This document shows positions 6,644-56,455 of a stretch of 64,000 bases of DNA, piece after piece; position 1 is the stretch's first letter, and each line of letters starts with the position of its first letter. The notes under the pieces were generated by a model, which worked only from the letters and a program-made list of their open reading frames with translations, did no database searches and was not told the DNA's origin. Both the position numbers and the translations under genes were made by a program. The stretch is from assembly GCA_035479295.1 (NCBI GenBank), contig DATIIV010000012.1, positions 65,010 through 129,009 on the forward strand, written 5' to 3'. Origin of the DNA: Candidatus Saccharimonadia bacterium. Lineage in GTDB: Bacteria; Patescibacteriota; Saccharimonadia; UBA4664.

Positions 6644-6690
6644 AGAGCCAGGCCGCAAAAAAAAGGCCGATGGACCTTACGGGATGAGAC

Positions 6691-9912: not shown

Positions 9913-9918
9913 TCACCC

Positions 9919-11348: not shown

Positions 11349-11386
11349 TTGTTGGGCTGCGGTTGCAGTCGGTCTTTCGCATTCTG

Positions 11387-11427: not shown

Positions 11428-11478
11428 TAGGGCCGGTAAGGTGCATGATAAAGCCCCAAAGGACTGCCGCGCTGGATC

Positions 11479-24347: not shown

Positions 24348-25106
24348 ATGGACATCCCATTAACCGCCATAACAACCGCCATCGGCGTCCTCGTCATGTT
24401 TGGCGCCTGGTTCTTTGTGGGGCAGCGCATGAGGCAGAGCCACGTCGCCGTTCTGCGCCCCGTGCAGCTGTTCAACCAATTCTTTTTGAGCATGGCCGTC
24501 TTCTTTACCATCATGGCCGTGCCGCATATCTGGCTGTTCATCGACCCGAGCCAGTTCCCGATCTGGATGGCCTGGGGTTATGTGGTTGGCCACATTTTCT
24601 TGTACCTGGCCTTCATTAATATCATCCGCATGACCTTTACCATCGTGCCCAAGCTGACGCCCAAGGCGCCGTTGGCCGTAGGGGCCGCTATCGTCGTTAC
24701 CGTGGCGGTCACCATCATTAATGCCGTTACTATGATCTTTGGCACGCGCCCCAGCTACGACTACGTGCAGCATGTCACCCAGTTTAACGCCTCGCCGATT
24801 GTGGGCGCTTCCATTGGGATCTTTGCGGCGCTGGCGGTCTTTCCGCCGGCCATCTTATTTATTGTTAACGCCTTTAAGGCGCAGGGCAATCGGCGGGTGC
24901 GGTCGCTCATTCTGGGCATTGGGCTCATTTTGCTTATGACGGCTGGCCCACTGCACGATGTGGCCAAGAACTGGCAGACTTACATGCTGGCTGATATCTT
25001 CTCGATCTTGAGCATCATCGTCACCGGCACCGGCGTCGTCTACCGCCTGGAGCAGAGCCTCACCGTGGAGCCGCAGCCCGTGCCCGCCCCTACAGCTGGT
25101 CGATGA
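24348..25106 (+). CDS. Polytopic membrane protein, paralog B
   Basis: RBS AGGAAAAAGG. 252 aa. A tandem duplicate of 23531-24283. Confidence 0.6.
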   Translation: MDIPLTAITTAIGVLVMFGAWFFVGQRMRQSHVAVLRPVQLFNQFFLSMAVFFTIMAVPHIWLFIDPSQFPIWMAWGYVVGHIFLYLAFINIIRMTFTIVPKLTPKAPLAVGAAIVVTVAVTIINAVTMIFGTRPSYDYVQHVTQFNASPIVGASIGIFAALAVFPPAILFIVNAFKAQGNRRVRSLILGIGLILLMTAGPLHDVAKNWQTYMLADIFSILSIIVTGTGVVYRLEQSLTVEPQPVPAPTAGR

Positions 25107-26754: not shown

Positions 26755-26757
26755 GGG

Positions 26758-27165
26758 CTACTCAGACTCGAGCGTCGGCGCCTCTTTGGCCGGCAGGTTC
26801 AGGTGCTGGCGCAGGCGAGCCATGACATCGGCAATAACGACCTGCGACTTCACCAGATAATCGTCGGCACCCAGCTCTTTGGCCCGGGCCTGATCGTTGG
26901 CTTGACCCAGCGCCGACAGAATCACGATCTTAATGCGGCTCGTCTCGGGCGTATGGCGCAGAATATCCAGCACGTCAAAGCCGTTGAGGCGCGGCATCAT
27001 AATATCGAGCAGGATCAGATTGGGCTTAAAGTCGCGGGCAGCCTGCAGCGCCTCTTCGCCATTACTGCAATGCTTTACCTCGAAGCCCTCGGCCTCCATG
27101 CGCATTTGGTAGAGGCTGGCTAGGGTGAGGTCGTCTTCGACCAGTAGGATGCGGGGTTGACTCAT
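26758..27165 (-). CDS. Response regulator, receiver domain only (CheY-like)
   Basis: ILLVEDD, phospho-acceptor LLDIMMP, and the T/K positions are conserved. No output domain in 135 aa. Lies 3 nt upstream of the kinase gene. Confidence 0.85.
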   Translation of the reverse strand: MSQPRILLVEDDLTLASLYQMRMEAEGFEVKHCSNGEEALQAARDFKPNLILLDIMMPRLNGFDVLDILRHTPETSRIKIVILSALGQANDQARAKELGADDYLVKSQVVIADVMARLRQHLNLPAKEAPTLESE

Positions 27166-29379: not shown

Positions 29380-30366
29380 GTGACAGCTTACGCAGAAGTG
29401 GCCGATGGCCACTGGGTCCGTCCCTCATTTAGCGCCTATGAACTTGAGGTGGCGGAGCGAATTCTAGCCGGCTATTCTCACAAGGTGTTGGCGCAGTGGC
29501 GTGCCCAATGCGTGGGCGCGGAACGAACGGATACGTCGATCACTTCGGTGCTGACTCGCTTGGGCCGGTTGGTTGCACGAGGCGATTCGATTCGCCTGAC
29601 GGTCATCATGGCGGAGCTGAGCTTAATTAAGCTGCCGAATGTGCAGCCCTGGGAAACTGATGCCTTGATGGAATCGGGCCTCAGTTTTGCCTGGGAACAG
29701 ATCCTGGAGCTGGCCATGAATGGCTGCAGCGCTCAACAGATCGCGACGAGGCTAAACCTCAGCTTCTCGCAGGTTCGAGGGCGGATCAGAATGTTACGCT
29801 ACTCCGGCGCGTTTAGGCAGTCTAGACTAATCCGACAGGTGGCAGTTTGGCTGACAACGAGATCTTTCATTCCGGACCGGCTTTCGAAGCGGCCGGTGGT
29901 TCAGGGGCCTCTGCTCTGGCATTACCTGATGGGCTACGATGAAGTGGAGACTCAGAGGCGACTTAACTGCGTCCCGTGGGTGGTGCCAACTTGGACAGCT
30001 CAAATGTTGACGCGCCTGAGAGAGACCTCGCTACTCAGAAGTTGTTTGGACGGCGTGAATAGCGGTAGGCTGCGGCTACCCTATCCACTGCGAGGATCCG
30101 TGGAGGCGCTGACTAAGCAGCCGCTTAGCTCTCGGTGCGTGGAGGAGCTGCGCGATCACGTGATGCGCGCTCGGAATATGACCCTTCAGCAGCAGGCTGC
30201 ACTACGTCAGCCTCAGCCTGATTGGCACGACATCTGTCGTGAGGTGCGCGTCGATACGCCCTGGCAGGCCCTGATGGTTGGGGCGGGTTATGTGTCTAGG
30301 CTAGATCAGTGTGGTGCTTTGGCGCCTCCGAACGCCTACAAGGGAGACGCACAGAATGGCAGCTAG
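29380..30366 (+). CDS. Protein of about 4 degenerate LuxR/GerE-type HTH repeats (no receiver or ligand-binding domain)
   Basis: GTG start with GGGAG upstream. Repeated xLSxxExxVxxLxxxGxSxxxIAxxLxLSxxTVxxHxxxIxxKLG-like blocks (for example FSAYELEVAERILAGYSHKVLAQ, FAWEQILELAMNGCSAQQIATRLNLSFSQVRGRIRML, GPLLWHYLMGY...). Confidence 0.55.
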   Translation: MTAYAEVADGHWVRPSFSAYELEVAERILAGYSHKVLAQWRAQCVGAERTDTSITSVLTRLGRLVARGDSIRLTVIMAELSLIKLPNVQPWETDALMESGLSFAWEQILELAMNGCSAQQIATRLNLSFSQVRGRIRMLRYSGAFRQSRLIRQVAVWLTTRSFIPDRLSKRPVVQGPLLWHYLMGYDEVETQRRLNCVPWVVPTWTAQMLTRLRETSLLRSCLDGVNSGRLRLPYPLRGSVEALTKQPLSSRCVEELRDHVMRARNMTLQQQAALRQPQPDWHDICREVRVDTPWQALMVGAGYVSRLDQCGALAPPNAYKGDAQNGS

Positions 30367-31258
30367 CGATCTCGCTTGGGAGAATCCCTCGGAGCGACAG
30401 ATCTGCCAGCTTGTACTGGAGGGGAACAGCATACTTGGCATTGCCGAGCAGCTGGGACTGAGCCCCGGTGGCGTCAGAAGCAAGCTCAACCGAGTTCATA
30501 CCAGAACTGGCATTCACGGCCGGTCAGCGATGATCTTAGCGCTGACCGAAGCGGGCGTTCTAACCGTGCCGATCAGCCGAGCCCAGCAGCTAAAGACCTC
30601 TCCGGCGGTAATTCAATCTGACCCTTTCTGGTTGTTGCTAGCGGAGATATCGATGCTGGACGTCAGTCTCGGCTGGCTCAACAGTGCCTCTGGTCGCTCG
30701 GTTAAGCAGATTGACAAGCTGTGTGGCCGAGTTACTCGATTAATGCATAAGGCACACCCGGGTAGGTCCGTGCTTAACCAGATGGCAATCGATCGTGCTA
30801 TCCTGGGATCGATCCAACTGCCGCAGGCATCTCAACTGCAGCTGGTTTGGGGGCCGCTGCTATGGTACCTGCTGATGGGCTATGCGCCGCAGGAAATAGC
30901 CCTTGCTCTTTGCAAGAAAGGTTGGGTGATACCGGCGAAGAGATTAGTGGATCAATGGCTGGTGCGTTTGTGGAAGCAATGCGGCAGCGCTGGTGTGGCC
31001 CCGACACTCGTGCGGCTCGTGCGGCAGCGTCAGGTGCAGCTGCCCTATGTGCTGCAGCGGGCCACTGATCGGCTGAAGTTCATGGTGCCGGATGCTGCGC
31101 TGAGCGAGCAGTTAGATCAATGTTACGATACACTGGTGCGGCGGAGTCTGCCGCTGGGCGTTAACCTTAAAGACCAGTTTGGGCTCTGCGACCGCCTGGG
31201 AGTGGCCAATCCCTGGCAGGCTATGTTGGTGGCCGCCTATTTGGGGCGGCTGCGGTAA
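30356..31258 (+). CDS. Paralogous multi-LuxR-HTH repeat protein
   Basis: ATG 30356 (MAASDLAWENPSERQICQLVLEGNSILGIAEQLGLSPGGVRSKLNRVHTRTGI, a clean LuxR-type HTH). Overlaps the upstream paralog by 11 nt. Confidence 0.6.
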   Translation: MAASDLAWENPSERQICQLVLEGNSILGIAEQLGLSPGGVRSKLNRVHTRTGIHGRSAMILALTEAGVLTVPISRAQQLKTSPAVIQSDPFWLLLAEISMLDVSLGWLNSASGRSVKQIDKLCGRVTRLMHKAHPGRSVLNQMAIDRAILGSIQLPQASQLQLVWGPLLWYLLMGYAPQEIALALCKKGWVIPAKRLVDQWLVRLWKQCGSAGVAPTLVRLVRQRQVQLPYVLQRATDRLKFMVPDAALSEQLDQCYDTLVRRSLPLGVNLKDQFGLCDRLGVANPWQAMLVAAYLGRLR

Positions 31259-31315: not shown

Positions 31316-32113
31316 CTACACCTCCACCGTCTTTATCGTCCACATATCCCAGGCCAGGCCGCGATTGCCCAGGTAGGCGAACGGCAGGTAAAAATACCCC
31401 TTATCGCCCCAACCGGTGCCCCAAGAGTTGCGGCCAATGAACTGCTGCTTGGTCTGGTCGTAGCCCACAATCAGTACGGCGTGGCCGCCCAGCAGTTTCT
31501 CGCTCTTGTGGGGCAGAGGAATGACGCCGGTCGTATTAGCGGCTGGGCTCTCAAAGCTCTCATACACTGAGATACCGGTAATGAACGGGTAGCCGCTAGC
31601 TAGGCAGGCCAGCATATCGCCGAAGGGATTGAGGTGATGGGTGACGATGCGCTGATAGGTAAGGGCTTGATTTTTTTCGGCTTCATCAAAGCACTTTTTG
31701 GTAGGCTTAACGGTAAACTTGGTAATGTCGTAAGGCCAATCCGTCTCGGGTGCGCTCCCAATCTTAACGAGAACTTTAACACCATCGCGCAGCCGGGCGC
31801 CGGCATCGCTGTTAACCGTGCCTTCCACATCGCGCTCGTTCCAGTAAATAAAAAGACGGCTCGGTGTCATAAAGGCCTTGCCCTCTTGGTGGCGGTCAAA
31901 GTCGAAAGCGGCGGCCAGCGCGTTAGCGGTGCAGCTGCCCAAGTGGCCTTGGTTGTAAATGGGCGGACATTTGTGGCGCAGATCGGCCTGGGGCGGCAGG
32001 GGAGCGGCTACTTGGGCTAGGGCGGCCGTGCCGTCAAAGATGTGGTCCCGTTGGTCGGGTAGGTCGGGTAGCCAGCCGAGGCCGTGGTTTTGAGGAGTAA
32101 CGTTGTGTGCCAT
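31316..32113 (-). CDS. Papain-like cysteine peptidase (C1 family), no signal peptide
   Basis: Catalytic Cys in QGHLGSCTANALAAAF, His in GGHAVLIVGYD, Asn in RNSWGTGWGDKGYF. 265 aa. Confidence 0.85.
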   Translation of the reverse strand: MAHNVTPQNHGLGWLPDLPDQRDHIFDGTAALAQVAAPLPPQADLRHKCPPIYNQGHLGSCTANALAAAFDFDRHQEGKAFMTPSRLFIYWNERDVEGTVNSDAGARLRDGVKVLVKIGSAPETDWPYDITKFTVKPTKKCFDEAEKNQALTYQRIVTHHLNPFGDMLACLASGYPFITGISVYESFESPAANTTGVIPLPHKSEKLLGGHAVLIVGYDQTKQQFIGRNSWGTGWGDKGYFYLPFAYLGNRGLAWDMWTIKTVEV

Positions 32114-32283: not shown

Positions 32284-32679
32284 ATGGCATTGCGAATTCT
32301 GATTGTCGAAGATTCGGTTAGCATTCGTATGTTGTACCAGGAGGTGCTACACAAGGCGGGCTATGAGGTCGAGGTGGCGACGGACGGCCAGGTAGCCTTG
32401 AGGCTGGCTCAGGCGCAGCCGTTCGACTGTATTGTGGTTGACATGTTGATGCCAAACCTTGATGGGCTGGCCTTTCTTAAGGCCTTTGATTGTCGACGTC
32501 ATCCCAAGACGCGCGTGATCATGGCCAGCAACTTGGACGATCCGCAGAAACGCGAGCAGGCGCTGGCGCTGGGTGCGGCCGCCTACATCATCAAGGCCGA
32601 GGTGTCGTTGCCGGAGTTATTGCGCAAGATTGATCCGACGCGGCCTGCTCCCGGAGCTTCGGCCGAGGGCGTGCATTAA
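32284..32679 (+). CDS. Response regulator, receiver domain only
   Basis: ILIVEDS, VVDMLMP, K in YIIKAE. 131 aa. Confidence 0.85.
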   Translation: MALRILIVEDSVSIRMLYQEVLHKAGYEVEVATDGQVALRLAQAQPFDCIVVDMLMPNLDGLAFLKAFDCRRHPKTRVIMASNLDDPQKREQALALGAAAYIIKAEVSLPELLRKIDPTRPAPGASAEGVH

Positions 32680-32709: not shown

Positions 32710-34035
32710 ATGGATGATATTCAGTCTCAGCCTATCTTTTTGATTATTGTTGGCATCTCGGGCGATTTGGCGCGTCGCAAGCTCTTGCCGGCTCTGCGCC
32801 AGATTGCGGCGGCGGGTGAGTTGCCACGCGAGTTTCGGGTTATCGGCATCACCCGCCGGCAGCTCAATGTGGCCAGCCTAACGGCCGGCGATGCCTTTTT
32901 GGCCGCGCACCTGGAGCTCTACCAAATGGATCTGGCCGAAGTCGCGGCCTACGACGGCCTTAAGCGACATCTGGCACAGCTCGAGCAGCAGTTGGGCGGC
33001 GCGGCTCAGCGGCTGTATTATCTCTCGGTGCCGCCGCAGGTGTCTGGGCCAATCGTGCAATTATTGGGCGAGTCTGGCTTAGCGGCTATGCCAGACAGTA
33101 AGTTGCTGCTCGAGAAGCCGTTTGGCACCGATCTCGCTTCGGCTGAGGACTTTATTGCCCACACCCAGCGCCACTTTACCGAGGACCAAATCTACCGCAT
33201 CGACCACTACTTGGCCAAAGAGATGGCTCAGAATCTGCTGGTATTTCGGGGCGGCAATGCGCTGTTTCGGCGCACCTGGAACCATGAGTTTATCGAGCGC
33301 ATCGAGCTGCTGGCCAGCGAAGAGATCGGCATTGAGGGTCGCTCGGCCTTTTACGAGCAGACCGGCGCGCTGCGCGATTTGGTGCAGAGCCACCTGCTGC
33401 AGCTGGCGGCTCTCACGCTCATGGAGGTCCCGCCGGCCGGCGACGAGACCCAGCTGCGGGCGGCCCGGCTCGCCGCCTTGCAGGCGCTGCAGCCGCCGGT
33501 CGATAGTACGCGGGATGTGCGCCGCGGCCAGTATATTGGCTACCGGGCCGAGGTGGCCAACCCCGCTAGTGCCACCGAGACGTTTGTATCGCTGACGCTC
33601 CGATCGCACGATCCGCGCTGGCAGGGTGTGCCCATTACGCTCACAACCGGCAAAGGCCTGGCGCGCAAAACCACCGAAATTCGAATTCATTATCGTCAGA
33701 GCGAGGCCGACGAAGCCAATGAGCTGGTGCTGCGCGTGCAGCCGCGCGAGGGCATCGAGCTTGATCTGTGGGCCAAGCGACCCGGCTACGACCATCGGCT
33801 CGAACGCGTGCCGCTCGAGTTTGCCTACAGCCGTCACTTCGACTCGCTGCCGGAGGCCTACGAGCGCGTGCTGGTCGACGCCATGCGGTCGCGCCGCAGT
33901 CTGTTTGCTTCGAGCGAGGAGGTACTGGCCTCGTGGCGCATCCTGGCGCCGGTGCAGCGGGCTTGGGGCATGAGCGATAAAGACTTAATCCTCTATCCGC
34001 TTGGCAGTGAGCCGGCCGCCGTCATTGGTCGGTAA
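32710..34035 (+). CDS. zwf: Glucose-6-phosphate 1-dehydrogenase
   Basis: N-terminal NADP site IVGISGDLARRKLLPAL, active-site IDHYLAKE, and the EKP motif (LLLEKPFG). Confidence 0.9.
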   Translation: MDDIQSQPIFLIIVGISGDLARRKLLPALRQIAAAGELPREFRVIGITRRQLNVASLTAGDAFLAAHLELYQMDLAEVAAYDGLKRHLAQLEQQLGGAAQRLYYLSVPPQVSGPIVQLLGESGLAAMPDSKLLLEKPFGTDLASAEDFIAHTQRHFTEDQIYRIDHYLAKEMAQNLLVFRGGNALFRRTWNHEFIERIELLASEEIGIEGRSAFYEQTGALRDLVQSHLLQLAALTLMEVPPAGDETQLRAARLAALQALQPPVDSTRDVRRGQYIGYRAEVANPASATETFVSLTLRSHDPRWQGVPITLTTGKGLARKTTEIRIHYRQSEADEANELVLRVQPREGIELDLWAKRPGYDHRLERVPLEFAYSRHFDSLPEAYERVLVDAMRSRRSLFASSEEVLASWRILAPVQRAWGMSDKDLILYPLGSEPAAVIGR

Positions 34036-34750
34036 TCGCTGCCATAAAGGCCGCTGCAATCGCTGCATAACCTCGCTCGTTGGGATGGAATCGGTCGGCG
34101 GCTAGCTTGCCCGTCCAGGGCAGGGCAAAGGCCGGCCCCATATCTGCTATTTTGAGTCCACGCTGCTGAGCCTGTCGATGCAGAAGCCGGCTGGCCGCTC
34201 GGTAGCGCAACACCGGTGCTAGCAGCGGCGGAATGTTAGGTCGGGCAAAGATATCGGCTACCACGGCGCCGTGTGGCAGCTGCATGAGCAAATGGTCGAG
34301 CCGCCGGAGCAGATGGCGGCGACCGCCGGGCTGAACCAAATCGTTGGAGCCGATCATAACGGTGATCAGATCGGGCCGGAGGCCCAGCTGATCCAGCACC
34401 GGCAGTTGATGATCGATCACGTCCTGAATTCGCCCACCACTAACCGATAGATTGATGAGTCGGTAGCTCCGACCGACCGCAGCTAGCCGTGCGTGGGCCT
34501 GGCCGACCCAGCCGCGGTCGTAGGCCGGGGCGCCAATGCCCTGCGACATCGAGTCGCCGAGTACCACCCACAGCCGGCCCGACCCACCAAGGGCTTGCTC
34601 ATTGGCTTGGTGCCAGGCCGCCGCATACGGCTCTGCTTGGTCTTGCACGGCTCGAAGCGACGGCCACAACTGCCGCAGTAACCGCCGTCCCAAGGCCAAG
34701 CTTGGGTGTAGGGGAGTGCGCCGCTGATAGGAGTTGGTCGCCAAAGCCAC
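34022..34750 (-). CDS. SGNH/GDSL-family hydrolase
   Basis: GDS motif VVLGDSMSQGIG. The C-terminus overlaps the zwf stop by 14 nt (convergent). Confidence 0.7.
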   Translation of the reverse strand: MALATNSYQRRTPLHPSLALGRRLLRQLWPSLRAVQDQAEPYAAAWHQANEQALGGSGRLWVVLGDSMSQGIGAPAYDRGWVGQAHARLAAVGRSYRLINLSVSGGRIQDVIDHQLPVLDQLGLRPDLITVMIGSNDLVQPGGRRHLLRRLDHLLMQLPHGAVVADIFARPNIPPLLAPVLRYRAASRLLHRQAQQRGLKIADMGPAFALPWTGKLAADRFHPNERGYAAIAAAFMAAITDQ

Positions 34751-34758: not shown

Positions 34759-36987
34759 TTAGCTCTGGGCGGCGGCGCCAGACTCAGCCGTTTTGGCTCT
34801 AGCCTTAGCTTCGGCCGCTGCTCCGTTGGGTTGCGGCAGCACAATTACCGAAGTGGTCTTAAGCGGCAGCGCGAAGCCAAAGATGCTACCCTTGCCCTCC
34901 TCGGACTTAAAAATAATCGAGCCACCTTGGTCCTCGATCACGCGCTTAGCTAGGTACAAGCCCAAGCCGGTGCCGTCCGGCCGCTCGGCCTTGGCGTTCT
35001 CGGCCCGGTAAAACTTGGAGAACAGGTGACGCTTCTCGTTCTCTGGCACGCCAATGCCGCTATCGATTACCAGCACCTCGGCAGCGCCCTCAGACTCGCG
35101 CACCTCCACCGTGACGCTGCCCTTGGGCGTGTAGTAAATGGCATTATCGATAAAATTCATAATCACCTGGCGCGTCTTGCTCTCGTCGATCGACAGCATG
35201 GGCAGCGGCTTGTCGGGCTGCTTAAAGATGAGTTCCAGCTTCTTGCGCTCGGCGCTCGGCCGCAGCTGCTGCACCTCCTGCTGGGCCAGCTCGCTCAAGT
35301 CCACCGGCTGGCGCTGAATCATAAACCGCCCCGAGCTCAGTCGCGACACATTCAGCAGATCGCTCGACATCGACACCATCCGCTCGGCCGCCTCTAGCGC
35401 GTAGTTAACATACTCGCGCTGCTTCACCGTCATGTTGGCCTGGTCGTCATCGAGCGCCATCGACAAGTAGCCGGTAATGGCGGTCAGCGGCGTGCCCAGC
35501 TGGTGCGACGCCATCGAGATGAAGTCGTCTTTGGTCTTATCCAGCACCTGCAAGTTGCGGTTGGCGGTGCGCAGTCGGTGCGTCGCATTGCGAATCCGCT
35601 CCTGCAGCGTGGCGTTAAAGTGGGCGATCTCTTCGTAGGATTTAGCGTTCTCAATCGCTACGGCTAGTTCTTTGCGGACGATATCGAGCAGCGTCAGATC
35701 CTGGCCCGAATACATTTCGCCACTCATCTTGTAGCCCAGGAAGAGATAGCCCACTAGCTCTTTCTCGGTGCTTAACCTAATAATGACGCCTAGGCCATGC
35801 TCCTCTAGGAATGATTTGGTTGCACCGGGCTCAAGCTCATCTGCTACCAAGGTGCTAGCGTTAATGTGCTCTAAATCCTTGTAGGTAAGTTTATAACGGG
35901 GCTCGTCACCAATGAATGTACGACTATAAATACTGTTGTTCTCGACAATGATGATTTGACCAGTAGCGATGCGCAATGACCAACAGAGCGTGCGCAATGA
36001 CTTCTTGAGGAGCGGTTCAAGTAAGAGCTCTGAAGTCAGAATCTCGCTTAAATCATCGAGCACGATCTGACTGTCGTAGCGATCTCGAAAGAATATGCTG
36101 TCGGTGACCTTCTCGAACAGTCGGCGTAAAGGCTGAAAGGTAATGGCTAGAAATAGCGCCAGGGCAACAAAGACACCAGTTTGGGCTAGCGGGATATTAT
36201 TCTGAAAGAGAATGTTGCTTGCCGCTAGGATGGTAATTCCATACAGGCCAATAAAAGTTGTAAGAAGCAAAAGATAGGCAACTGATCGGGCGACGGCTAG
36301 CCTGATACTAAAGAGTCGATGCTTAACGATAGCGTACGAGACCGACCCCACCAAGAAAACGGTTAGCAATGGGCCGATGCGCGATATGTCCCAGTTGCCG
36401 ACGATAGCCGGAATGACAATGTTTGTGAGCACAGCCAAGATAATAAAACCCGCTATTCCCAGCATAATAAGACGAGTTTGAGCGCGAAGCCGCAAGTCGA
36501 TTCCAGTGTTCCGGTACAGCTTCCAGAGGTAGTAGCAAGATAGTCCAAACATCACCAAGATGAAAATGGGGTAGAGAGTATAAAGGCTGCCGAGAGCAAC
36601 GTTGGTTCCTCCGTCGGGCCGCTTTGAGACGGGACCAACCACGAAATCGCTTAAAGAGAAGATGGTGCCAGCAATAATAATGACGGCACTAACAAGCTGT
36701 CTCCGCTTGCTGGCGCTTTGTTTGCCGCCAAAGTAAAACGCAAACAACGTTATGGTGGCTAACACGAGAAAACCGGCGCCAAAGTCAAGGCGAGCAAAGA
36801 ACTGATCAAGGCCAAGCGTGGGAGCTCGGTCGGTAAGATAATTGAAGATCGTCCAGGCGGTGATTGACAGGGAGATGCCAAAAAACGCCCGACTCTCGGC
36901 TCGCTGAGGGTTACGCATAAACACGAGCGAGCCGAGAGCCAAATTGCTTACTGAGGCGAGTATGAGGATGGCGAGGTCAAATATCAT
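34759..36987 (-). CDS. Sensor histidine kinase with 7TM-type N-terminal domain, GAF, HisKA, HATPase_c (paralog of 53845-56013)
   Basis: 7-8 TM helices (NLALGSLVFMRNPQRAESRAFFGISLSITAWTIFNYL...). H-box FISMASHQLGTPLT, HATPase GTGLGLYLAK. The start codon overlaps the stop of the upstream acyltransferase gene. Confidence 0.85.
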   Translation of the reverse strand: MIFDLAILILASVSNLALGSLVFMRNPQRAESRAFFGISLSITAWTIFNYLTDRAPTLGLDQFFARLDFGAGFLVLATITLFAFYFGGKQSASKRRQLVSAVIIIAGTIFSLSDFVVGPVSKRPDGGTNVALGSLYTLYPIFILVMFGLSCYYLWKLYRNTGIDLRLRAQTRLIMLGIAGFIILAVLTNIVIPAIVGNWDISRIGPLLTVFLVGSVSYAIVKHRLFSIRLAVARSVAYLLLLTTFIGLYGITILAASNILFQNNIPLAQTGVFVALALFLAITFQPLRRLFEKVTDSIFFRDRYDSQIVLDDLSEILTSELLLEPLLKKSLRTLCWSLRIATGQIIIVENNSIYSRTFIGDEPRYKLTYKDLEHINASTLVADELEPGATKSFLEEHGLGVIIRLSTEKELVGYLFLGYKMSGEMYSGQDLTLLDIVRKELAVAIENAKSYEEIAHFNATLQERIRNATHRLRTANRNLQVLDKTKDDFISMASHQLGTPLTAITGYLSMALDDDQANMTVKQREYVNYALEAAERMVSMSSDLLNVSRLSSGRFMIQRQPVDLSELAQQEVQQLRPSAERKKLELIFKQPDKPLPMLSIDESKTRQVIMNFIDNAIYYTPKGSVTVEVRESEGAAEVLVIDSGIGVPENEKRHLFSKFYRAENAKAERPDGTGLGLYLAKRVIEDQGGSIIFKSEEGKGSIFGFALPLKTTSVIVLPQPNGAAAEAKARAKTAESGAAAQS

Positions 36988-37796
36988 GCGGGCGTAGGTC
37001 CTGTAAATGCTGGAAACTTGAAGACTTCTTGAAGACCCTCGCCCCGGAACAGCCAGCCAAATCGCTTTGGGTCATTAACGCAAAGGCGCGCCATCCAGTC
37101 CTCGATATCCACCCAAACGGGCAGGCTCAGACTTGAACCAAGGTAAGGCTTCCAACCTATCCCCTCGTAGTAGCTAAAGGGTTCACCAAGTCTGCGCTTG
37201 AAGCTGTTGTGAGCGGACTCATCAACTATTGTAACCCAATAGCGAGCAGCTTGCTCTAGTGTATACTTACATGCCATGTGGTAGATCGCCTTGGCGATCC
37301 GGCCCGAGTATGCGTGGCGATGGTAGGCCGGGACTACCCCCATTGTCACCATGTCTAGCGTAGTTTTGGGGCCAAAGTCGACAGCAGCGGCTTGTAGCGC
37401 CTGAGTTAGCGGTAGGTTCCAGTACCGACCAGGCTCGCTTGACTCGATGTCGGTGAGGCTTTTAAAGCCGAGGGGCGACCGTCTGATCACTCGCAACATT
37501 CCGGCTGGTAGACCGTTTGCATGGTCGATAAGGATAAAGAATGTGCTGTAGGGATCATATGGCCCATACTCTCTCTCTAGATCCTCTGGCGTGTCCCCGT
37601 AGAAAGCGAATACGTCCGCCTCCGCCAACCGCGCGACTGGCAATGCCCAGTGCGGTGTGCCGGTTTGGGGCTCGATGCGATAGACGCCAAATGGCTGCGA
37701 TGGCGCGGCATTACCCTGGTCCATGAGGCGGCGAATCAGGTCCTTAGAGCGAATCGTCTCTTCCCACTGTTCTCGCACTAGCCCCGTAGCGACCAC
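36984..37796 (-). CDS. LuxI/FeeM-fold N-acyltransferase-like protein (autoinducer-synthase / N-acyl-amino-acid-synthase superfamily, GNAT-related); product unknown
   Basis: Motif block LEREYGPYDPYSTFFILIDHANGLPAGMLRVIRRSP parallels LasI ESDRYDALGPTHYLLALDDQGQVVGCLRLLPTT. 270 aa. 4-nt overlap with the HK gene. Paralog of 53094-53807. Confidence 0.5.
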   Translation of the reverse strand: MVATGLVREQWEETIRSKDLIRRLMDQGNAAPSQPFGVYRIEPQTGTPHWALPVARLAEADVFAFYGDTPEDLEREYGPYDPYSTFFILIDHANGLPAGMLRVIRRSPLGFKSLTDIESSEPGRYWNLPLTQALQAAAVDFGPKTTLDMVTMGVVPAYHRHAYSGRIAKAIYHMACKYTLEQAARYWVTIVDESAHNSFKRRLGEPFSYYEGIGWKPYLGSSLSLPVWVDIEDWMARLCVNDPKRFGWLFRGEGLQEVFKFPAFTGPTPA

Positions 37797-38137
37797 TAGG
37801 TCTCCTTAAACTCGATGTGTGAAGCCTTGAAATAACGCTGAGTAAACTCCACAGCGTTATTCACATTGAAAGCCTTGCAGGTATATATGTCAACGCTAAA
37901 GAAGAGGCGCGGTTGCTCCCAGGCGTATAGGTGAGCCCCCGATGTTTCCCAGTGAATCCAGCCAGCCCAGCCGTAGAGGTCTGAGCGGTGTGTCACCGGT
38001 TTGATGAGTGCTGTCATGCCTGTTACGACAGAGAGCTGTTCAAGGTAGTCTTTAATTTGGGCATCATCAATAGGTTGGGCGCAATAGCCCTCAATAATAA
38101 GCCGCTGCCGGTATATCTCCGGCGCTAGATCCCTCAC
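37796..38137 (-). CDS. S-adenosylmethionine-decarboxylase-like pyruvoyl-enzyme family protein (PF02675-like)
   Basis: RLIIEGYCAQ parallels SpeH HLVAEFYEC. HWETSGAHLYAWEQPRLFFSVDIYTCK parallels [25 protein letters not shown]. 113 aa. 1-nt overlap with the downstream gene. Confidence 0.55.
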   Translation of the reverse strand: MRDLAPEIYRQRLIIEGYCAQPIDDAQIKDYLEQLSVVTGMTALIKPVTHRSDLYGWAGWIHWETSGAHLYAWEQPRLFFSVDIYTCKAFNVNNAVEFTQRYFKASHIEFKET

Positions 38138-38215
38138 CCCATAGCTCCTTGTTCAGGCCCATCATACTCTTCTTAGGACCGCTAAGTCTACGTAAAAAGA
38201 TGAAATTAAAGCGTT

Positions 38216-38734
38216 TTACGCCGCCCCAGCTGCTCCCGGAATCTCGTCCTTGGTATAGCCCGCCAAGATGCCGCGGACGATCTCCTCGACCTGCTTGGGC
38301 TTGTGCTCGCTCTTGATGATGTAGCGGACGGCGCCGAGCTCGAGGGCGGTCTGGACGTCGCTGTTGCCGGCCAGGTTGGTGAGCACCACCACCGGAAGAT
38401 TGGCCACGGCCGGATCGGCCTTGAGCTGCTTGAGCACCTCCATGCCGTTAAGCTTGGGCATCATGATGTCGAGCAGAATGAGCGTGGGGTTAACCGAGCG
38501 TGCTTTGTCGAGGCCCTCTTGGCCGTCGGTGGCCAGTTCAACCTCGTAATTATTCGAGGCAAAGATCGTCTGATACATCCGCGAGAGTAAGGCGTCATCT
38601 TCGATGATTAGAATCTTAGGCACACTGAAAACCTCATTTACGCCCATCATACACGAGGCAAGCGAGAAGCGGAAGCCCTTAAGCATAAGCTTTATCAAAG
38701 GACAAATTTCGCGGTTGAGCCGATGGAGCGGCAA
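38216..38734 (-). CDS. Response regulator, receiver domain only
   Basis: Receiver core KILIIEDD...LLDIMMP...YIIKSE. The start is uncertain: ATG 38734 (4 nt after the upstream gene) or ATG 38650/38647. Confidence 0.75.
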   Translation of the reverse strand: MPLHRLNREICPLIKLMLKGFRFSLASCMMGVNEVFSVPKILIIEDDALLSRMYQTIFASNNYEVELATDGQEGLDKARSVNPTLILLDIMMPKLNGMEVLKQLKADPAVANLPVVVLTNLAGNSDVQTALELGAVRYIIKSEHKPKQVEEIVRGILAGYTKDEIPGAAGAA

Positions 38735-39658: not shown

Positions 39659-40444
39659 CTATGCCTCCACGAGCTTGATGGTCCACAGATCGGAGGTCAG
39701 CTCGCGATCGGTGAGGTAGGCGAGCGGCAGGTAAAAGTAGCCGGCGTCGCCCCAGCGCTTGCCCCACGAGTTGCGGCAGATGAAGTAGCCAGCGGCCATG
39801 TCGTAGCCCACCACCAGGATGGCGTGGCCACCCAGGAGCTCCTCGTTGGGCTTCGGCACGGGAATGACGCCGGTGCGGTTGGCCTCGTCGCTCTCAAAGC
39901 TGGCGTAGACCGCGATGCCGGCCACGAACGGGCGGCCGGCCGCCAAGCAGCTGCGCATGTTGGTGTCGTCGCTCGTTACCTTGATGCGAGCGTACGACAG
40001 CACCTGGTTGGAGAGCGCGTCAGCGTAGCACTGGGCGGACGGCTTGACGGTGAAGCGGCTGATGTCGTACAGCCACTCGCTCTCGGGCGGCACGCCCAGC
40101 TTGGCCAGAACCTTCATGCCGTCGCGAAGGTAGGCGCCGGCGTCGGTGTCGACGGTGCCCTCGCGTGCGCGCTCATTGTAGTAAATGAACAGCCGGCTCG
40201 GGCCGATGGGCTCCTGACCCTGCCGGCGACGCTCCATGTCGTAGGCCGCCGCCAGCGCGTTGGCGGTGCAGCTGCCCAGCTGGCCCTGGTCGTACACGTC
40301 CGGGCAGTCCGGGCGCAGGTCGATGCTATTGGGCAGCTGCGAGGGGCGGATGTCTAGGCCGGCGCGGTCGAACTTGTGGTCGCGGGGGTCGCGCGGATCG
40401 GGGATATTCCCGAGGCCGTGGCCGCGGGGCGTTACGAGCGCCAT
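39659..40444 (-). CDS. Papain-like cysteine peptidase (C1 family), paralog of 31316-32113
   Basis: QGQLGSCTANALAAAY, GGHAILVVGYD, RNSWGKRWGDAGYF. Roughly half of positions are identical to the other copy on reading the two side by side. No signal peptide. Confidence 0.85.
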   Translation of the reverse strand: MALVTPRGHGLGNIPDPRDPRDHKFDRAGLDIRPSQLPNSIDLRPDCPDVYDQGQLGSCTANALAAAYDMERRRQGQEPIGPSRLFIYYNERAREGTVDTDAGAYLRDGMKVLAKLGVPPESEWLYDISRFTVKPSAQCYADALSNQVLSYARIKVTSDDTNMRSCLAAGRPFVAGIAVYASFESDEANRTGVIPVPKPNEELLGGHAILVVGYDMAAGYFICRNSWGKRWGDAGYFYLPLAYLTDRELTSDLWTIKLVEA

Positions 40445-52362: not shown

Positions 52363-53010
52363 CTACTCGATAGGCAGACGATAGATGCGGTTAAGAATCT
52401 GGAGAGCAGTAAGCTTCTCTGCTGCCTCCAGCGGCTTGCCCACCGTAATGGCATAAGAAGGCCATAGCCATCGGCCGCGGCACCACTCGATGTGCACTGG
52501 AATTATCTTTACTTGAGGAGTCTTGGCTAGAACTTCAATGCCGCTTCGGGGCCGAATCTTATGCGGTGTGCGCTTGCCCTCAGGAAAGATCATGATAGAT
52601 TGGTGGTGTTTCAGAAACAGCTGGGCTGCAGTGAGGCCATAAATGTAAGAGGCATTGGCGCTAGCCGGGAAAGCTCCAAACGCAAAGAGGAAGTGACGTA
52701 GGAACTTGTCGAAGAGGGCGTTATGGGCAAAAAAGCGGAGAGGTGCTAGGCCGGCAAGGATGCCTGGTGGAAGTGCGACGCAAATTATAAACGGGTCAAA
52801 CATGCTCTGGTGATTTGCTGCAACTATATAGCAATGATCAGGACTAATATCACCAGGCTGGAGGTTGACTCTAGTCCGATGCGGTAGCAAGTGGGTAATG
52901 AGGCGAATTGGCCAGTAAAGGACGCGCTGACTGAGTAAGATCACGCGAAGACGGCCAGGCGATAAAAGCGAGTCAAGGGACGCAAAAGATTTTACTTGAG
53001 TAGCCGACAT
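52363..53010 (-). CDS. Lysophospholipid acyltransferase (PlsC-like, LPLAT family)
   Basis: Motif I VAANHQSMFD (H-x4-D) and motif III FPEGKRT. Confidence 0.7.
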   Translation of the reverse strand: MSATQVKSFASLDSLLSPGRLRVILLSQRVLYWPIRLITHLLPHRTRVNLQPGDISPDHCYIVAANHQSMFDPFIICVALPPGILAGLAPLRFFAHNALFDKFLRHFLFAFGAFPASANASYIYGLTAAQLFLKHHQSIMIFPEGKRTPHKIRPRSGIEVLAKTPQVKIIPVHIEWCRGRWLWPSYAITVGKPLEAAEKLTALQILNRIYRLPIE

Positions 53011-53093: not shown

Positions 53094-53807
53094 GTGACAA
53101 ACAGGCAGGAGGGGGCGGCTGAGTCGGGGAAAGGGGGACTTGGCTCGAGGCATTTGCATTTTGAGGAGCATGGACTGGTCTTTCGCGAGTTAACAGCAGA
53201 GGCCGATTTTAGGGCCGCTTATCGGCTGCGTTATAAAATCTGTGTAGAGCAGCTGCATTGGGTGCAGGGGGTTCCCGAAGAGCAGCTTGAGTACGATGAT
53301 TATGATAAGTACTCGTACCACTTTGGCTGTTTTAGGGAGAGTAAGCTTATAGGGTATATGCGTATGACGCCAGAAGATAATTCCGTGGGCACCATGAGCC
53401 GCGACCACTTTGGCCATCTCTGGCAAATTGACCCTCAGTACCCTACCCACGAAACGGCTGACCTATCCCGACTCTTGGTGGATCGGCCCTATCTGCATAA
53501 ACCCTTGCTGCTGCGGCGAATTCTGATTGGTTTATACCGACTGGCCTACGGAAGGGCAGAATTGAGTCGGCCGCGCATTCGGTATTGGTATTTTATTACC
53601 ACGGGACGCTTGCTTAAGGCTTTAAGATGGCAGTTAGGCTTACCCGTCAAAGTGTTTGGCCACGATCAGACCTCAGATGGCAAAACCACCTATGCAGTCG
53701 GCCTCGATTTACAGCGGGGTCGCCGGAGACTCGCTATCCTCGCACCTTGGCGTCTTATCTACTTTGCCAGGGCTAAGCGGCTTCAACGCGATAATGAGCG
53801 TCCATAG
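53094..53807 (+). CDS. LuxI/FeeM-fold N-acyltransferase-like protein (autoinducer-synthase superfamily), paralog of 36984-37796
   Basis: GTG start with RBS GAGGAG. AYRLRYKICVEQLHWV...EEQLEYDDYDKYSYHFGCFRESKLIGYMRMTPE...DHFGHLW aligns to LasI RAEVFRERLGW...ESDRYDALGPTHYLLALDDQGQVVGCLRLLPTT...DVFPGLL. Confidence 0.55.
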   Translation: MTNRQEGAAESGKGGLGSRHLHFEEHGLVFRELTAEADFRAAYRLRYKICVEQLHWVQGVPEEQLEYDDYDKYSYHFGCFRESKLIGYMRMTPEDNSVGTMSRDHFGHLWQIDPQYPTHETADLSRLLVDRPYLHKPLLLRRILIGLYRLAYGRAELSRPRIRYWYFITTGRLLKALRWQLGLPVKVFGHDQTSDGKTTYAVGLDLQRGRRRLAILAPWRLIYFARAKRLQRDNERP

Positions 53808-53844
53808 TATCAACTTAAGCAAAAGAGCTATAGAATAAAGATTA

Positions 53845-56013
53845 ATGGATTATCGGGCATTACTTCTATTTTTAGTAACGGCTGCGAATCTTTTCCTGGG
53901 TCTTGCCGTTTACTTTCGCAATCCTCGCAATCGCCAGTATATCTATTATTTTGCTTTTGCCTCATCGATAGCGCTCTGGACCTTAACCAACGGGCTCTAT
54001 CAGATTTTCCCGCCGCGCCTCCTTTTATCGATGGCGCTTTTGAGCTATGCCAGTGCCATCCTTATGGCCACCTTTTTCCTGCTGTTTAACCGTGAGTTTA
54101 CCAAAATTAAGCTAGGTCCTGACTGGCTGATCCTGCTTGTGGGCGGCCTAATGGCCTTAGTCGCGCTCAAACCTGGCGTACTAGCCTCCTCGATCGCTGC
54201 TGATCGCTCCATTGTTACTACTCCGGGAATCGCTGTTATGGCCATCTTGCTGGTTGGGTTTCTGTCGTGGGGCTTATTACTGTTGGTTGCATCGTTGCGC
54301 CGAGCTCGAGGCTTAGTCCGCACTCAGCTGCAGTTTATGTTGGCTGGTATGACAACTGCCGCCTTAATGGGGGTGCTATTTAACTTAGCACTACCGGTAA
54401 TGGGCCATATTTATACCTATGTTTATCTCGGCCCCGACTTCACGACTTTTTACGTCGCTGCCATTGCCTACAGCGTTATTCGGCAGCGTCTCTTTAACTT
54501 ACGGGTAGCTATTGCTCGGACGATAGCGTATCTTTTGGTCTTAACGGCTATGGCTGGCATGTACATTGCGGCTATTTTAAGTATAACTTCATACTTCTTG
54601 CCGTCGGGTCGGATCTCTGGCAGCCAAAATCTGATCTCGACCGTCGTAGCGATTGTACTGGTTTTCACCTTCCAACCCCTCCGCCGCTTCTTTGAGCGCG
54701 TTACCGACAGTGTGTTTTATCGTGATCGGTACGATTCGCAGGTGGTGTTGAATGAGTTCAGCAAGGTGCTGGTGTCGGAGCTGGATCTGGATCGGATTCT
54801 GCGCCGCAGCCTCAGTCAGCTGTGCCGCGACGTGCACATTCAGTTTGGGCAGCTGGTGATCTTTAATCAGGACCGAGTGTACCGGGTGGAGCACTTTGGG
54901 CCGCTGCCCAAGCGGCTGATGGTGGCGCCGGAGCTGCGGCGGCTGGATGAGTCGCTGCTGGTGGCCGATGAGCTTGAGGCCGGCGAGCGCAAGACCATCA
55001 TGGACGAGCACGCCGTGCGTGTATCGGTGCGGCTGGCCACCCGCGATGAGTTCGTGGGCTACCTGCTGCTGGGCGATAAGCTGTCGGGCGATATTTACTC
55101 CAACCAAGACATTGAGCTGCTGGAGATTATCGGTAAGGAGCTGGCCGTGGCGATTCTGAATGCCAAGGCCTATGCCGAGATCGAGGCTTTTAACCGCACA
55201 CTGCAGGAGCGGGTCGATCACGCCACCAATCGACTGCGCGTGGCTAACCGCCACCTCAAAGAGCTTGATAAAGCCAAAGATGAGTTTATTAGCATGGCCT
55301 CGCACCAGCTGCGCACGCCGCTCACTACCATTAAGGGCTATCTGAGCATGATGCTGGAGGGCGATGCCGGGCGTCTCACCGCCGCCCAGAAGCAGTTTGC
55401 CGGCTACGCTTTTAGCTCGTCGGAGCGCATGGTTAACCTCATCTCCGACCTGCTTAATGTAAGCCGCCTAAGTGCCGGCCGTTTTCTGATTCAAACCAAG
55501 CCCACCGATATGGTGGCGATGGTGGCCGACGAGGTGCGTCAGCTGCAGAGCCATGCCGCGGCTAAGCACATTAGCCTCATCTTTGAGCAGCCACCAGCTG
55601 ACTTTCCGCTGGTGGAGATCGATGAGAACAAGACGCGCCAAGTCATCATGAACTTTATCGACAACGCCATTTACTACACCCAGACCGGCAGCGTGCGGGT
55701 GCGGCTTACCTTGGCCGGGCCGATCGTGCGGCTCGAGGTCATCGACACTGGCATTGGCGTGCCAGCAGCCGAGAAGCGCCACCTGTTCACCAAATTTTAC
55801 CGGGCCGAGAATGCCCAGGTGGTGCGGCCAGACGGTACCGGTCTAGGTCTGTATTTGGCCAAACGAGTGGTGGAAGATCAAGATGGTACAATACTATTTA
55901 GTAGCACCGAAGGCAAGGGTTCGGTGTTTGGATTTGAGCTACCGATTAAGCCCCGCCACAAGTCGGCGCCCAAATCGGCCAACGATAAGCAGAAGGAAAA
56001 CCAGCATGGCTAA
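53845..56013 (+). CDS. Sensor histidine kinase with 7TM-type N-terminal domain, GAF, HisKA, HATPase_c (paralog of 34759-36987)
   Basis: NLFLGLAVYFRNPRNRQYIYYFAFASSIALWTLTNGL... H-box FISMASHQLRTPLT, HATPase GTGLGLYLAK. 722 aa. Confidence 0.85.
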   Translation: MDYRALLLFLVTAANLFLGLAVYFRNPRNRQYIYYFAFASSIALWTLTNGLYQIFPPRLLLSMALLSYASAILMATFFLLFNREFTKIKLGPDWLILLVGGLMALVALKPGVLASSIAADRSIVTTPGIAVMAILLVGFLSWGLLLLVASLRRARGLVRTQLQFMLAGMTTAALMGVLFNLALPVMGHIYTYVYLGPDFTTFYVAAIAYSVIRQRLFNLRVAIARTIAYLLVLTAMAGMYIAAILSITSYFLPSGRISGSQNLISTVVAIVLVFTFQPLRRFFERVTDSVFYRDRYDSQVVLNEFSKVLVSELDLDRILRRSLSQLCRDVHIQFGQLVIFNQDRVYRVEHFGPLPKRLMVAPELRRLDESLLVADELEAGERKTIMDEHAVRVSVRLATRDEFVGYLLLGDKLSGDIYSNQDIELLEIIGKELAVAILNAKAYAEIEAFNRTLQERVDHATNRLRVANRHLKELDKAKDEFISMASHQLRTPLTTIKGYLSMMLEGDAGRLTAAQKQFAGYAFSSSERMVNLISDLLNVSRLSAGRFLIQTKPTDMVAMVADEVRQLQSHAAAKHISLIFEQPPADFPLVEIDENKTRQVIMNFIDNAIYYTQTGSVRVRLTLAGPIVRLEVIDTGIGVPAAEKRHLFTKFYRAENAQVVRPDGTGLGLYLAKRVVEDQDGTILFSSTEGKGSVFGFELPIKPRHKSAPKSANDKQKENQHG

Positions 56014-56455
56014 CACTGATACCGCCCATCAACCGGCCCAGCTGGGGGCCGGCAAGATCATCTTAATCGCCGAGGACGATCCGTTTATTTCGCGCATGTA
56101 CGAGATCAAACTGCAGGGCGCTGGCTTTACGGTTATCGTTAAGAATAATGGTCGCGACGCCTTTGAGGCTATTAAGTCTGAGCATCCGAGCCTGGCCGTC
56201 CTCGACATTAATATGCCCGAGCTGAGCGGTCTTGAGGTATTATCGGCACTACAGAGCGACGGCTTTGATCTGACGACCATGCCGGTAATCGTGCTAACCA
56301 ATTCGTCGGAGCTGTCGGATCGCAAAAAGGCGCTCAGCTACGGCGCCGAGTACCTGGTAAAGGCCGAGCTCACGCCGCGCGAGGTGCTTAATATGATCGA
56401 CGCCAAGCTCGGCCTCGACCCTGGCGACAGCGAGGCTAAGCCGGCCGATGCTTAG
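56006..56455 (+). CDS. Response regulator, receiver domain only
   Basis: ATG 56006 with RBS AAGGAAAA; overlaps the HK stop by 8 nt. ILIAEDD, VLDINMP, YLVKAE. Confidence 0.8.
   Translation: MANTDTAHQPAQLGAGKIILIAEDDPFISRMYEIKLQGAGFTVIVKNNGRDAFEAIKSEHPSLAVLDINMPELSGLEVLSALQSDGFDLTTMPVIVLTNSSELSDRKKALSYGAEYLVKAELTPREVLNMIDAKLGLDPGDSEAKPADA

Follow-up and report, generated by a model that had tools for sequence, protein, structure and literature searches.

Two translationally coupled genes, one for a 113-aa protein with an AdoMetDC fold and one for a 270-aa GNAT with a LuxI/FeeM fold, are the conserved core of a gene cluster (cassette A) at positions 34759-38734 of the window, i.e., the whole 64-kb stretch of DNA that was analyzed, which comes from a member of the Saccharimonadia, a candidate-phylum bacterium. 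Across dozens of genomes from Saccharibacteria and Actinomycetota, this enzyme pair is found again, almost always with a membrane signalling protein encoded next to it, and is therefore a good candidate for a lipid-like signal system that is as yet undescribed. We assign a probability of roughly 40% to the reading that a decarboxylase-derived amine is N-acylated and that the adjacent membrane protein senses the product. In such a system, the 113-aa protein would be a neofunctionalised pyruvoyl-type decarboxylase making a primary amine, with an amino acid as a likelier substrate than SAM, and the GNAT would N-acylate this amine with an acyl-ACP or acyl-CoA thioester as donor, yielding a lipophilic N-acyl amine. 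The membrane signalling protein encoded beside the pair may then sense this N-acyl product. In Saccharibacteria, this role would fall to a co-transcribed multi-pass GAF histidine kinase signalling through receiver-only proteins, and in Actinomycetota to a multi-TM GGDEF-EAL enzyme setting c-di-GMP. The pairing of a decarboxylase-like with a LuxI/FeeM-fold enzyme appears to be undescribed.

Cassette A comprises four minus-strand open reading frames running in the same direction (Table 1), in agreement with the preliminary description. The stop and start overlaps that it had listed for the AdoMetDC-like, acyltransferase and kinase genes were likewise read in the sequence. The stop of the 113-aa gene and the start of the 270-aa gene (TAG/GTG, read as TAGTG) have one base in common at 37796, and the 270-aa stop overlaps the kinase start in an ATGA at 36984-36987. 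An AAGGAG lies 6-7 nt ahead of both GTG starts. The receiver gene was previously taken to start with TTG at 38734 and to belong to the module, and neither view could be upheld. Its most likely start is a GTG at 38623 (135 aa), and among the relatives the gene lies on the same strand in L001, is divergent in L048-L062, and is absent in L045. The receiver is thus a variable accessory and not part of the core. Between it and the 113-aa gene lie 78 nt, in which a promoter-like and a terminator-like site were both at chance level, and it is probably its own transcription unit. At the other end, a GDSL lipase gene that was missing from the earlier gene list starts 8 nt past the kinase stop. It was not present downstream of the kinase in the relative L001 and is possibly an operon member in the source genome only.

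Table 1. Features of cassettes A and B in the analyzed window.
Feature	Position	Strand	Profile match or remark
Cassette A			
GDSL-family lipase/acylhydrolase, downstream of the cassette	34022..34750	-	PF13472 E=3e-22
742-aa multi-pass membrane histidine kinase	34759..36987	-	HisKA_7TM 36 bits, HisKA, HATPase_c
270-aa LuxI/FeeM-fold GNAT, unnamed family, candidate N-acyltransferase	36984..37796	-	
113-aa AdoMetDC-fold protein	37796..38137	-	PF02675 AdoMet_dc 44.6 bits vs cut-off 25
Candidate cleavage site of the 113-aa pyruvoyl-decarboxylase homologue	between T65 and S66		
Receiver-only response regulator	38216..38623	-	PF00072 E=3e-24; GTG start likely
Cassette B			
PlsC-type acyltransferase, divergent, at an OlsA-like position	52363..53010	-	PF01553 E=3e-12
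237-aa PF13444/FeeM-type N-acyltransferase	53094..53807	+	PF13444 32 bits vs cut-off 22.4
722-aa 7TM histidine kinase	53845..56013	+	44% paralogue of cassette A kinase
Receiver-only response regulator	56006..56455	+	8-nt overlap with kinase stop

Of 54 loci, 42 have the 113-aa gene immediately upstream of the 270-aa gene, among them 29 of the 40 species-representative genomes, and the GNAT adjoined the small protein in all context look-ups begun from the latter (4/4). In 11 of the 40 genome loci, the GNAT had a GGDEF-EAL neighbour and the small gene was not adjacent, so the coupling is not obligatory. In P0138, the two proteins are fused within a single ORF. The arrangement recurs in more than 50 independent loci and goes far beyond chance. 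With regard to the signalling partner, an orthologous 7TM-GAF kinase is encoded directly downstream on the same strand in 12/12 low-GC Saccharibacteria-like loci, and the enzyme-kinase adjacency was seen also in L057-L062. The synthase-kinase adjacency, for which a check in relatives had been proposed, was kept throughout the Saccharibacteria-like loci examined. Actinomycetota have a GGDEF-EAL protein in place of the kinase; 31 of 36 of their loci carry a convergent gene for such a multi-TM protein downstream of the GNAT. Between the membrane domain of the kinase and that of the GGDEF-EAL protein, hhalign detected no homology (probability 0.2%), and the two therefore have no ligand-binding module in common. 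The small protein is 57-92% identical over all pairs from the two phyla, compared with 27-62% for the GNAT. A near-invariant small protein beside a diverging GNAT is consistent with a head group that stays fixed and an acyl specificity that diversifies.

The 742-aa kinase has 8-9 hydrophobic segments according to a hydropathy scan, and a Pfam search found no receiver domain in it. The GAF domain previously ascribed to this protein matched no GAF model at E<=0.1, but its full-length homologues do match, which suggests a GAF-like linker. The N-terminus showed a weak match to the LuxN model (24.3 bits vs a cut-off of 1550, E=8e-6), which falls short of homology to LuxN, AinR or CqsS; having no receiver domain, the protein is also not a hybrid kinase. 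Positions 53094-56455 had been described as a second copy of the acyltransferase-kinase pair. The kinases are paralogues with 44% identity over their full length, but the acyltransferase is not a copy: BLASTP aligned only the EYxxYD stretch of the 270-aa and 237-aa proteins (E=0.16). The sole links between the two families are an hhalign alignment (E=1.7e-5) and a weak HMM match to L056.

Cassette B is a system of another kind, of PF13444 type and with a PlsC-like gene as partner. Its 237-aa protein contains the exact ExDxYD motif and stayed below the cut-offs of PF00765 (20.9 vs 24), TIGR03694 (43.7 vs 111.95) and PF21926, while its kinase matched PrsK (TIGR02916) weakly and in the N-terminal half (26.9 vs a cut-off of 300). 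A PEP-CTERM/XrtA synthase with PrsK, as defined by TIGR03694 and TIGR02916, was hence not recovered. The enzyme-kinase pairing is kept in L054-L056, as is the PlsC-type gene beside the PF13444 gene, and the kinase-receiver arrangement is the same in L054 and L056. This conserved PlsC-type partner, next to an enzyme from OlsB's own family with a weak match to the OlsB model NF052554 (17.5 vs a cut-off of 350), is in line with an alternative in which the product of the pair is not a diffusible signal but a lipid of the membrane or envelope (an aminolipid or N-acyl amine, cf. OlsB/OlsA), and the kinase or c-di-GMP enzyme regulates or monitors envelope composition. A polysaccharide deacetylase downstream of cassette B, the GDSL acylhydrolase after cassette A, and intramembrane multi-pass sensors with little extracellular loop would also agree with it. 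We nevertheless regard an envelope lipid as unlikely, because a PlsC-type partner is missing from cassette A and from its more than 50 relatives, fast GNAT divergence beside a near-invariant partner is more typical of signal diversification, and GGDEF-EAL or kinase genes accompany the module almost universally.

The 113-aa protein matches the PF02675 profile and has the class-1b AdoMetDC fold. Its S66 aligns with the pyruvoyl Ser of the Tm enzyme (S63) and C87 with Tm C83, both invariant in 30/30 sequences, in an alignment of low hhalign confidence that has GxxG, W and D.(F/Y)TC as anchors. His62, Glu64, Thr65 and His69, which surround the predicted cleavage loop, are invariant as well. The positions of His68 and Ser55 are taken by an invariant Tyr71 and Ala58, respectively, with His69 two positions before Tyr71 on the same strand face. 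Both of the replaced residues have an important part in the self-processing of characterised enzymes, and the pyruvoyl group may therefore not form. As marks of a bona fide AdoMetDC, we took the equivalog score, a Pro that is conserved behind the Trp (HTWPE), and spermidine synthase as a partner. Here, the TIGR03330 equivalog reached 20.4 bits vs a cut-off of 75.65, the motif reads YAWEQP with the diagnostic Pro not in place, and no spermidine synthase (speE / Spermine_synth) was found in any Pfam-annotated neighbourhood of the module. The earlier designation as AdoMetDC-like is thus appropriate for profile and fold, but a true SAM decarboxylase is unlikely, and SAM is an improbable substrate since His68, Ser55 and the Pro are missing. 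The source annotations read 'S-adenosylmethionine decarboxylase'.

The 270-aa protein has the GNAT-derived alpha/beta fold common to LasI, EsaI and TofI and is FeeM-like as well. By Foldseek E-value, the generic GNATs PaiA and GCN5 came ahead of FeeM, and the lowest values include the polyamine acetyltransferases PaiA and SpeG. While the proposed LuxI/FeeM relationship holds for the fold, profile searches place the protein outside PF00765 (no match at E<=0.1), PF13444 and PF21926, and it is a separate unnamed family. No cassette A protein matched TIGR03694 or TIGR02916. From the motif formerly ascribed to it, G-M-L-R-V-I was found, but ExDxYD is absent and reads E-Y-G-P-Y-D (ExGxYD). The LuxI signature reportedly defined by Gould et al. 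in 2004 consists of R23, F27, D44, D47, R70, E101, S103 and R104 (LasI numbering). Mapped by hhalign (E=2.7e-4, probability 42%), F27, Y46, D47 (as E/D), R70 and E101 (as Asp) are kept in the 270-aa protein, and four signature residues are changed (R23->E59, D44->G78, S103->A150, R104->T151), so that the full signature was not found. The favoured reading draws on the residues kept in both proteins, the gene coupling, the signalling neighbour and, in cassette B, a second, distantly related FeeM-type enzyme paired with a paralogous kinase. Counting against it are the four changed LuxI residues, the Foldseek ranking, Tyr71 and Ala58 in the small protein, the loci where no small gene adjoins the GNAT, and the unrelated membrane domains of the two kinds of signalling protein.

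LuxI enzymes use SAM, and the 113-aa protein could be an AdoMetDC-fold subunit that does not self-process and either has SAM or a related compound as its ligand or serves the LuxI-like enzyme as activator or scaffold; the latter enzyme would then make an AHL-like or other SAM-derived product. Tyr71 and Ala58, the fusion protein P0138, and the extreme conservation of the 113-aa protein, which fits several binding partners, are compatible with this role. It is distinctly unlikely in view of the invariant Ser66 and Cys87, the invariant residues around the cleavage loop, the four LuxI signature residues lost in the GNAT, and the GNAT genes that have no small gene next to them. Non-processing AdoMetDC-fold subunits have precedents in the trypanosome prozyme and in the spermine synthase N-domain. 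Ordinary polyamine metabolism, with a true SAM decarboxylase for spermidine, a PaiA/SpeG-type polyamine N-acetyltransferase and a functionally meaningless kinase adjacency, is very improbable, because the PF02675 match, the source annotations and the Foldseek ranking of PaiA and SpeG are outweighed by the low TIGR03330 score, His68 and the Pro not being in place, the Pfam-annotated neighbourhoods without spermidine synthase genes, and a signalling-protein context kept across two phyla.

Saccharibacteria are obligate epibionts of Actinomycetota, and it is a long shot that they have one unrecognised N-acyl signal class in common with their host phylum. In that event, the near-invariant AdoMetDC-fold enzyme would provide the same head group in both phyla, the acyl chains, specific to each lineage, would be added by the rapidly diverging LuxI/FeeM-fold enzymes, and the epibiont would read the signal by its 7TM-GAF kinase and the host by its TM-GGDEF-EAL enzyme. 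If true, this would be a cross-phylum chemical language between epibiont and host, arising from new decarboxylase-plus-synthase chemistry.

Compared with known systems, the 113-aa protein resembles class 1b AdoMetDC/SpeD in its fold, its size class and the conserved pyruvoyl-mechanism residues Ser and Cys, and differs by the motif ETSGAHFYAWEQP in place of ESHxxIHTWPE, by Ala instead of Ser55, and by a GNAT partner without polyamine genes. Class 1b AdoMetDC/SpeD has neofunctionalised arginine and ornithine decarboxylase offshoots, SpeDA and SpeDC (PMC10407285), and the 113-aa protein is like these in having no spermidine synthase nearby. Unlike the LuxI AHL synthases (LasI 1ro5, TofI 3p2h, RpaI 6wn0, BjaI 5w8a), the 270-aa GNAT leaves PF00765 unmatched, is approximately 70 residues longer with additional N- and C-terminal helices, and is partnered by an AdoMetDC-fold protein rather than LuxR, in Saccharibacteria and Actinomycetota. 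FeeM/PF13444 synthases include PEP-CTERM/exosortase-associated ones found with the PrsK multi-TM GAF kinase. The 270-aa protein differs from them in lacking a PF13444, PF21926 or TIGR03694 match and in its acceptor, which is probably a decarboxylase product and not an amino acid; no exosortase context was seen. Ornithine-lipid synthesis by OlsB/OlsA is mirrored in cassette B, where a PF13444 N-acyltransferase adjoins a PlsC-type acyltransferase, but the OlsB model score is far below its cut-off, a sensor kinase accompanies each of the cassettes, and cassette A has no PlsC partner. Finally, the cassette A kinase is non-hybrid, its synthase stems from another family than those of the Vibrio pairs LuxM-LuxN, AinS-AinR and CqsA-CqsS, a second enzyme is coupled, and the Actinomycetota partner is a GGDEF-EAL protein; as in these pairs, however, a candidate synthase gene adjoins a multi-pass membrane histidine kinase, whose N-terminus weakly matches LuxN itself.

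The preliminary description of cassette A as a signal synthase coupled to a receptor kinase held as an observation once several details had been corrected, while its interpretation was supported in part. The stretch originates from a metagenome-assembled genome of Candidatus Saccharimonadia, and a check of the source taxon returned NCBI entries from this taxon that were 100% identical to the 270-aa, 113-aa and 237-aa proteins, respectively. The four co-directional minus-strand genes were confirmed together with their overlaps: the genes for the 113-aa and 270-aa proteins meet at a TAG/GTG junction with one base in common, the latter overlaps the kinase gene by ATGA, and both GTG starts are preceded at 6-7 nt by AAGGAG. 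GTG 38623 is the probable start of the receiver, which a 78-nt spacer separates from the next gene; promoter-like and terminator-like matches occur in this spacer at a chance-level frequency and were thus used only as a weak hint of a separate receiver transcription unit. Counting this receiver as part of the module did not hold up: its gene lies on the same strand as the cassette only in L001, the locus of the closest relative, is divergent in most Saccharibacteria and is missing in locus L045, and this variability shows that it is not core. The GDSL gene may belong to the same transcript as cassette A, and its product could either provide acyl groups or take them off; L001 has no GDSL gene after its kinase. 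On either side of the cassette neighbourhood lies a gene for a C1 papain-family cysteine peptidase; the two are paralogues whose N-termini resemble each other, and they may mark a segmental rearrangement.

Features of cassette A and its surroundings, in window coordinates
Feature	Position	Strand	Basis or remark
Receiver	38216-38734 as called; 38216-38623 from likely start GTG 38623	-	consecutive ORF
113-aa protein	37796-38137	-	consecutive ORF
270-aa protein	36984-37796	-	consecutive ORF
742-aa histidine kinase	34759-36987	-	HisKA_7TM, HisKA, HATPase_c matches
GDSL acylhydrolase/lipase-family gene	34022-34750	-	start 8 nt past kinase stop
C1 peptidase paralogue	31316-32113	-	
C1 peptidase paralogue	39659-40444	-	
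PAS histidine kinase and receiver pair	25090-27165	-	
Receiver-only response regulator	26758-27165		
Receiver-only response regulator	32284-32679		
Receiver-only response regulator	51913-52299		
Receiver-only response regulator	56006-56455		
~320-aa protein	29380-30366	+	
~320-aa protein	30311-31258	+	

No Pfam or NCBIfam model matched the 270-aa protein, for which a LuxI/FeeM-type fold had been proposed. Its family profile gave a weak but collinear match to four LuxI sequences (E=2.7e-4), aligned to the 237-aa protein of cassette B over 157 columns (E=1.7e-5) and weakly matched a FeeM-like paralogue in locus L056. The motif first read as ExDxYD is in fact ExGxYD. According to the profile comparison, the LuxI positions F27, Y46, D47, R70 and E101 are retained, while R23 is replaced by an invariant Glu, D44 by Gly, S103 by Ala and R104 by Thr; published SAM-carboxylate contacts in LuxI enzymes, by which the changes at R23 and R104 could be read, were not found in the literature searched. 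Only 7 relatives came from a word-indexed search. When 1.8 billion representatives were scanned in full with the HMM, 964 reached E<=1e-3 and 354 reached E<=1e-30, all of them unnamed. One member (P0117, 670 aa) carries two LuxI-like domains in tandem. At the sequence level, neither protein had a meaningful match in the PDB: the 270-aa profile, the 113-aa sequence and its profile gave a GNAT at E=0.33 and RRM matches that were spurious. The PDB relationship of both proteins came from fold comparison only. The present analysis defines a large unnamed enzyme family with a quorum-signal-synthase fold.

Over 2,500 clusters match the 113-aa protein; identity is 67-88% for the best 120 of them and 57-92% in all pairs from Saccharibacteria and Actinomycetota. 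The protein was aligned to SpeD of T. maritima, for which PDB chains confirmed both the sequence and cleavage at E62|S63. The invariant S66 corresponds to the pyruvoyl precursor S63 and the invariant C87 to C83, but Y71 stands at the position of H68, A58 at that of S55, and YAWEQP where SpeD has HTWPE. SpeD and the arginine and ornithine decarboxylases derived from it conserve S63, H68 and C83 as essential residues, and the Pro of HTWPE is a mark of true AdoMetDCs (PMC10407285). Since the equivalents of H68, S55 and this Pro are changed, the 113-aa family is a further divergent AdoMetDC offshoot, and SAM, which the preliminary description had considered, is unlikely to be its substrate. Judged from the invariant His62, Glu64, Thr65 and His69 flanking a predicted loop, the family is plausibly, though not assuredly, still a pyruvoyl enzyme.

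The two enzymes proved to be closely associated. All 7 metagenomic contigs with a 270-aa relative carry the 113-aa gene directly upstream, and in the reverse look-up from the 113-aa protein, an HMM-confirmed member of the 270-aa family followed just downstream in 4/4 cases. For the locus search, broad alignments of 55 or 7 sequences held no stretch conserved enough, and a 12-sequence subset was used instead. Scanning a single genome for each species gave 40 loci, which the search pattern (…EYGPYE) biases toward Actinomycetota: most came from Acidimicrobiia, Thermoleophilia, Microthrixaceae and other Actinomycetota MAGs, the remainder from Actinoplanes, Catenuloplanes, one Mycobacterium and two Saccharibacteria. 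Of 54 loci assessed by domain coordinates, 42 (29 of these 40 among them) have the 113-aa gene immediately 5' in the same orientation. In P0138, both proteins are fused in a clean single ORF; P0160 was rejected as a second fusion, as its junction resembles a frameshift, and reads as a frameshifted pair. The 270-aa protein diverges fast while the 113-aa protein is near-invariant, a contrast that would fit one unchanging head group combined with acyl chains that vary.

In both phyla, members of the 270-aa family nearly always have a gene for a membrane signalling protein next to them. Adjacency of synthase and kinase was retained in all 12 low-GC Saccharibacteria-like loci with enough sequence, which represent at least seven distinct arrangements and place a same-strand 720-745-aa multi-pass GAF histidine kinase downstream; L057-L062 additionally have a kinase of this type. 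In Actinomycetota, however, the next gene is convergent in 31 of 36 loci and encodes a protein of ~780-820 aa in which GGDEF and EAL domains come after 9-10 hydrophobic segments, and this neighbour also occurs at loci without the 113-aa gene. A shared sensor domain or common ligand-binding module was rejected, as hhalign found no homology between the membrane domains of the two (probability 0.2%). In locus L012, two TM-GGDEF-EAL paralogues follow the enzyme pair in tandem (6802-9135 and 9459-11801), and one Saccharibacteria-like contig carries a heliorhodopsin gene 3 kb upstream of the module (L057, 826-1956). Hydropathy places 8-9 hydrophobic segments within the first ~285 residues of the cassette A kinase, a Pfam search found no receiver domain in it, and a GAF domain is presumed from its homologues. 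At 24-27 bits, the N-termini of the kinases match the LuxN and PrsK models weakly, and these matches serve as leads only. Taken together, the results show that two functionally coupled enzymes are linked to membrane signal transducers in both phyla.

Regarding the downstream relay, the 64-kb window encodes three histidine kinases and five response regulators that consist of a receiver only, and none of its regulators was found to have a recognised DNA-binding output. Phosphorelay or outputs by protein-protein contact would fit this composition. One candidate relay partner is a pair of PAS histidine kinase and receiver genes, located 1 kb past the cassette in L001 (5433-6817) and 8 kb off in the window, with the two receivers being 78% identical. 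The adjacent, mutually similar ~320-aa proteins matched a GerE/LuxR-type helix-turn-helix at 20-22 bits, below the 23.5 cut-off, and are possible unconventional transcription factors.

As the main reading, to which we assign a probability of roughly 40%, decarboxylation by the 113-aa protein would yield an amine, the LuxI/FeeM-fold enzyme would N-acylate it, and the neighbouring membrane protein would perceive the lipophilic product. Its strongest rival, in which the enzyme pair forms a membrane aminolipid pathway, is favoured for cassette B by the PlsC partner encoded there. Cassette B had been taken for a second copy; this was accepted for its kinase, a 44% identical paralogue, but rejected for the enzyme, which is only distantly related, scoring above the PF13444 threshold and below those of the LuxI, FeeM and exosortase-associated synthase models. 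Cassette B has no AdoMetDC-like gene and is a second, related system, and its unit of PlsC-like(-), FeeM-like, 7TM kinase, receiver and polysaccharide deacetylase(-) genes is conserved in other Saccharimonadia. Most Saccharibacteria-like contigs (compared in L048-L053 and L057-L062) have the order FolD(+), RR(-), AdoMet_dc, GNAT, kinase, whereas the window has FolD and RR(-) next to cassette B, with the PlsC-like gene in the AdoMet_dc place (segment 50679-53010), which suggests replacement or relocation. In the cassette B relatives L054-L056, the PlsC-like gene is accompanied by a Methyltransf_33 (EgtD-like) gene and by a small one lacking annotation, neither of which occurs in the window, and L056 has two FeeM/PF13444-like genes in tandem (6031-6828 and 7001-7711) before the kinase. 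Alternatively, the AdoMetDC-fold protein could be a non-catalytic subunit of a SAM-using synthase. Ordinary polyamine metabolism is the least likely explanation.

A two-gene construct and candidate receptors are now defined for experiment. A signal as product would open signalling in ultra-small epibiotic bacteria, possibly with actinobacterial hosts, and a lipid would reveal a new aminolipid pathway plus its sensor. In both cases, the 113-aa protein would be another, uncharacterised AdoMetDC offshoot. To our knowledge, cell-to-cell signals in the candidate phyla radiation are essentially unknown, and exploration of LuxI-type chemistry in Actinomycetota has barely begun. Actinobacterial luxI homologues have been reported in another context (iscS, mnmA, etf), where a decarboxylase is not mentioned (PMC13136126). 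No description of the pairing turned up in the literature searched, an incomplete body that covered AdoMetDC in Saccharibacteria, PF02675 together with PF13444, the neofunctionalisation of SpeD and LuxI in actinobacteria. An N-acyl synthase next to a membrane sensor is an arrangement of a known kind, while the enzyme family and its coupling to an AdoMetDC offshoot appear undescribed.
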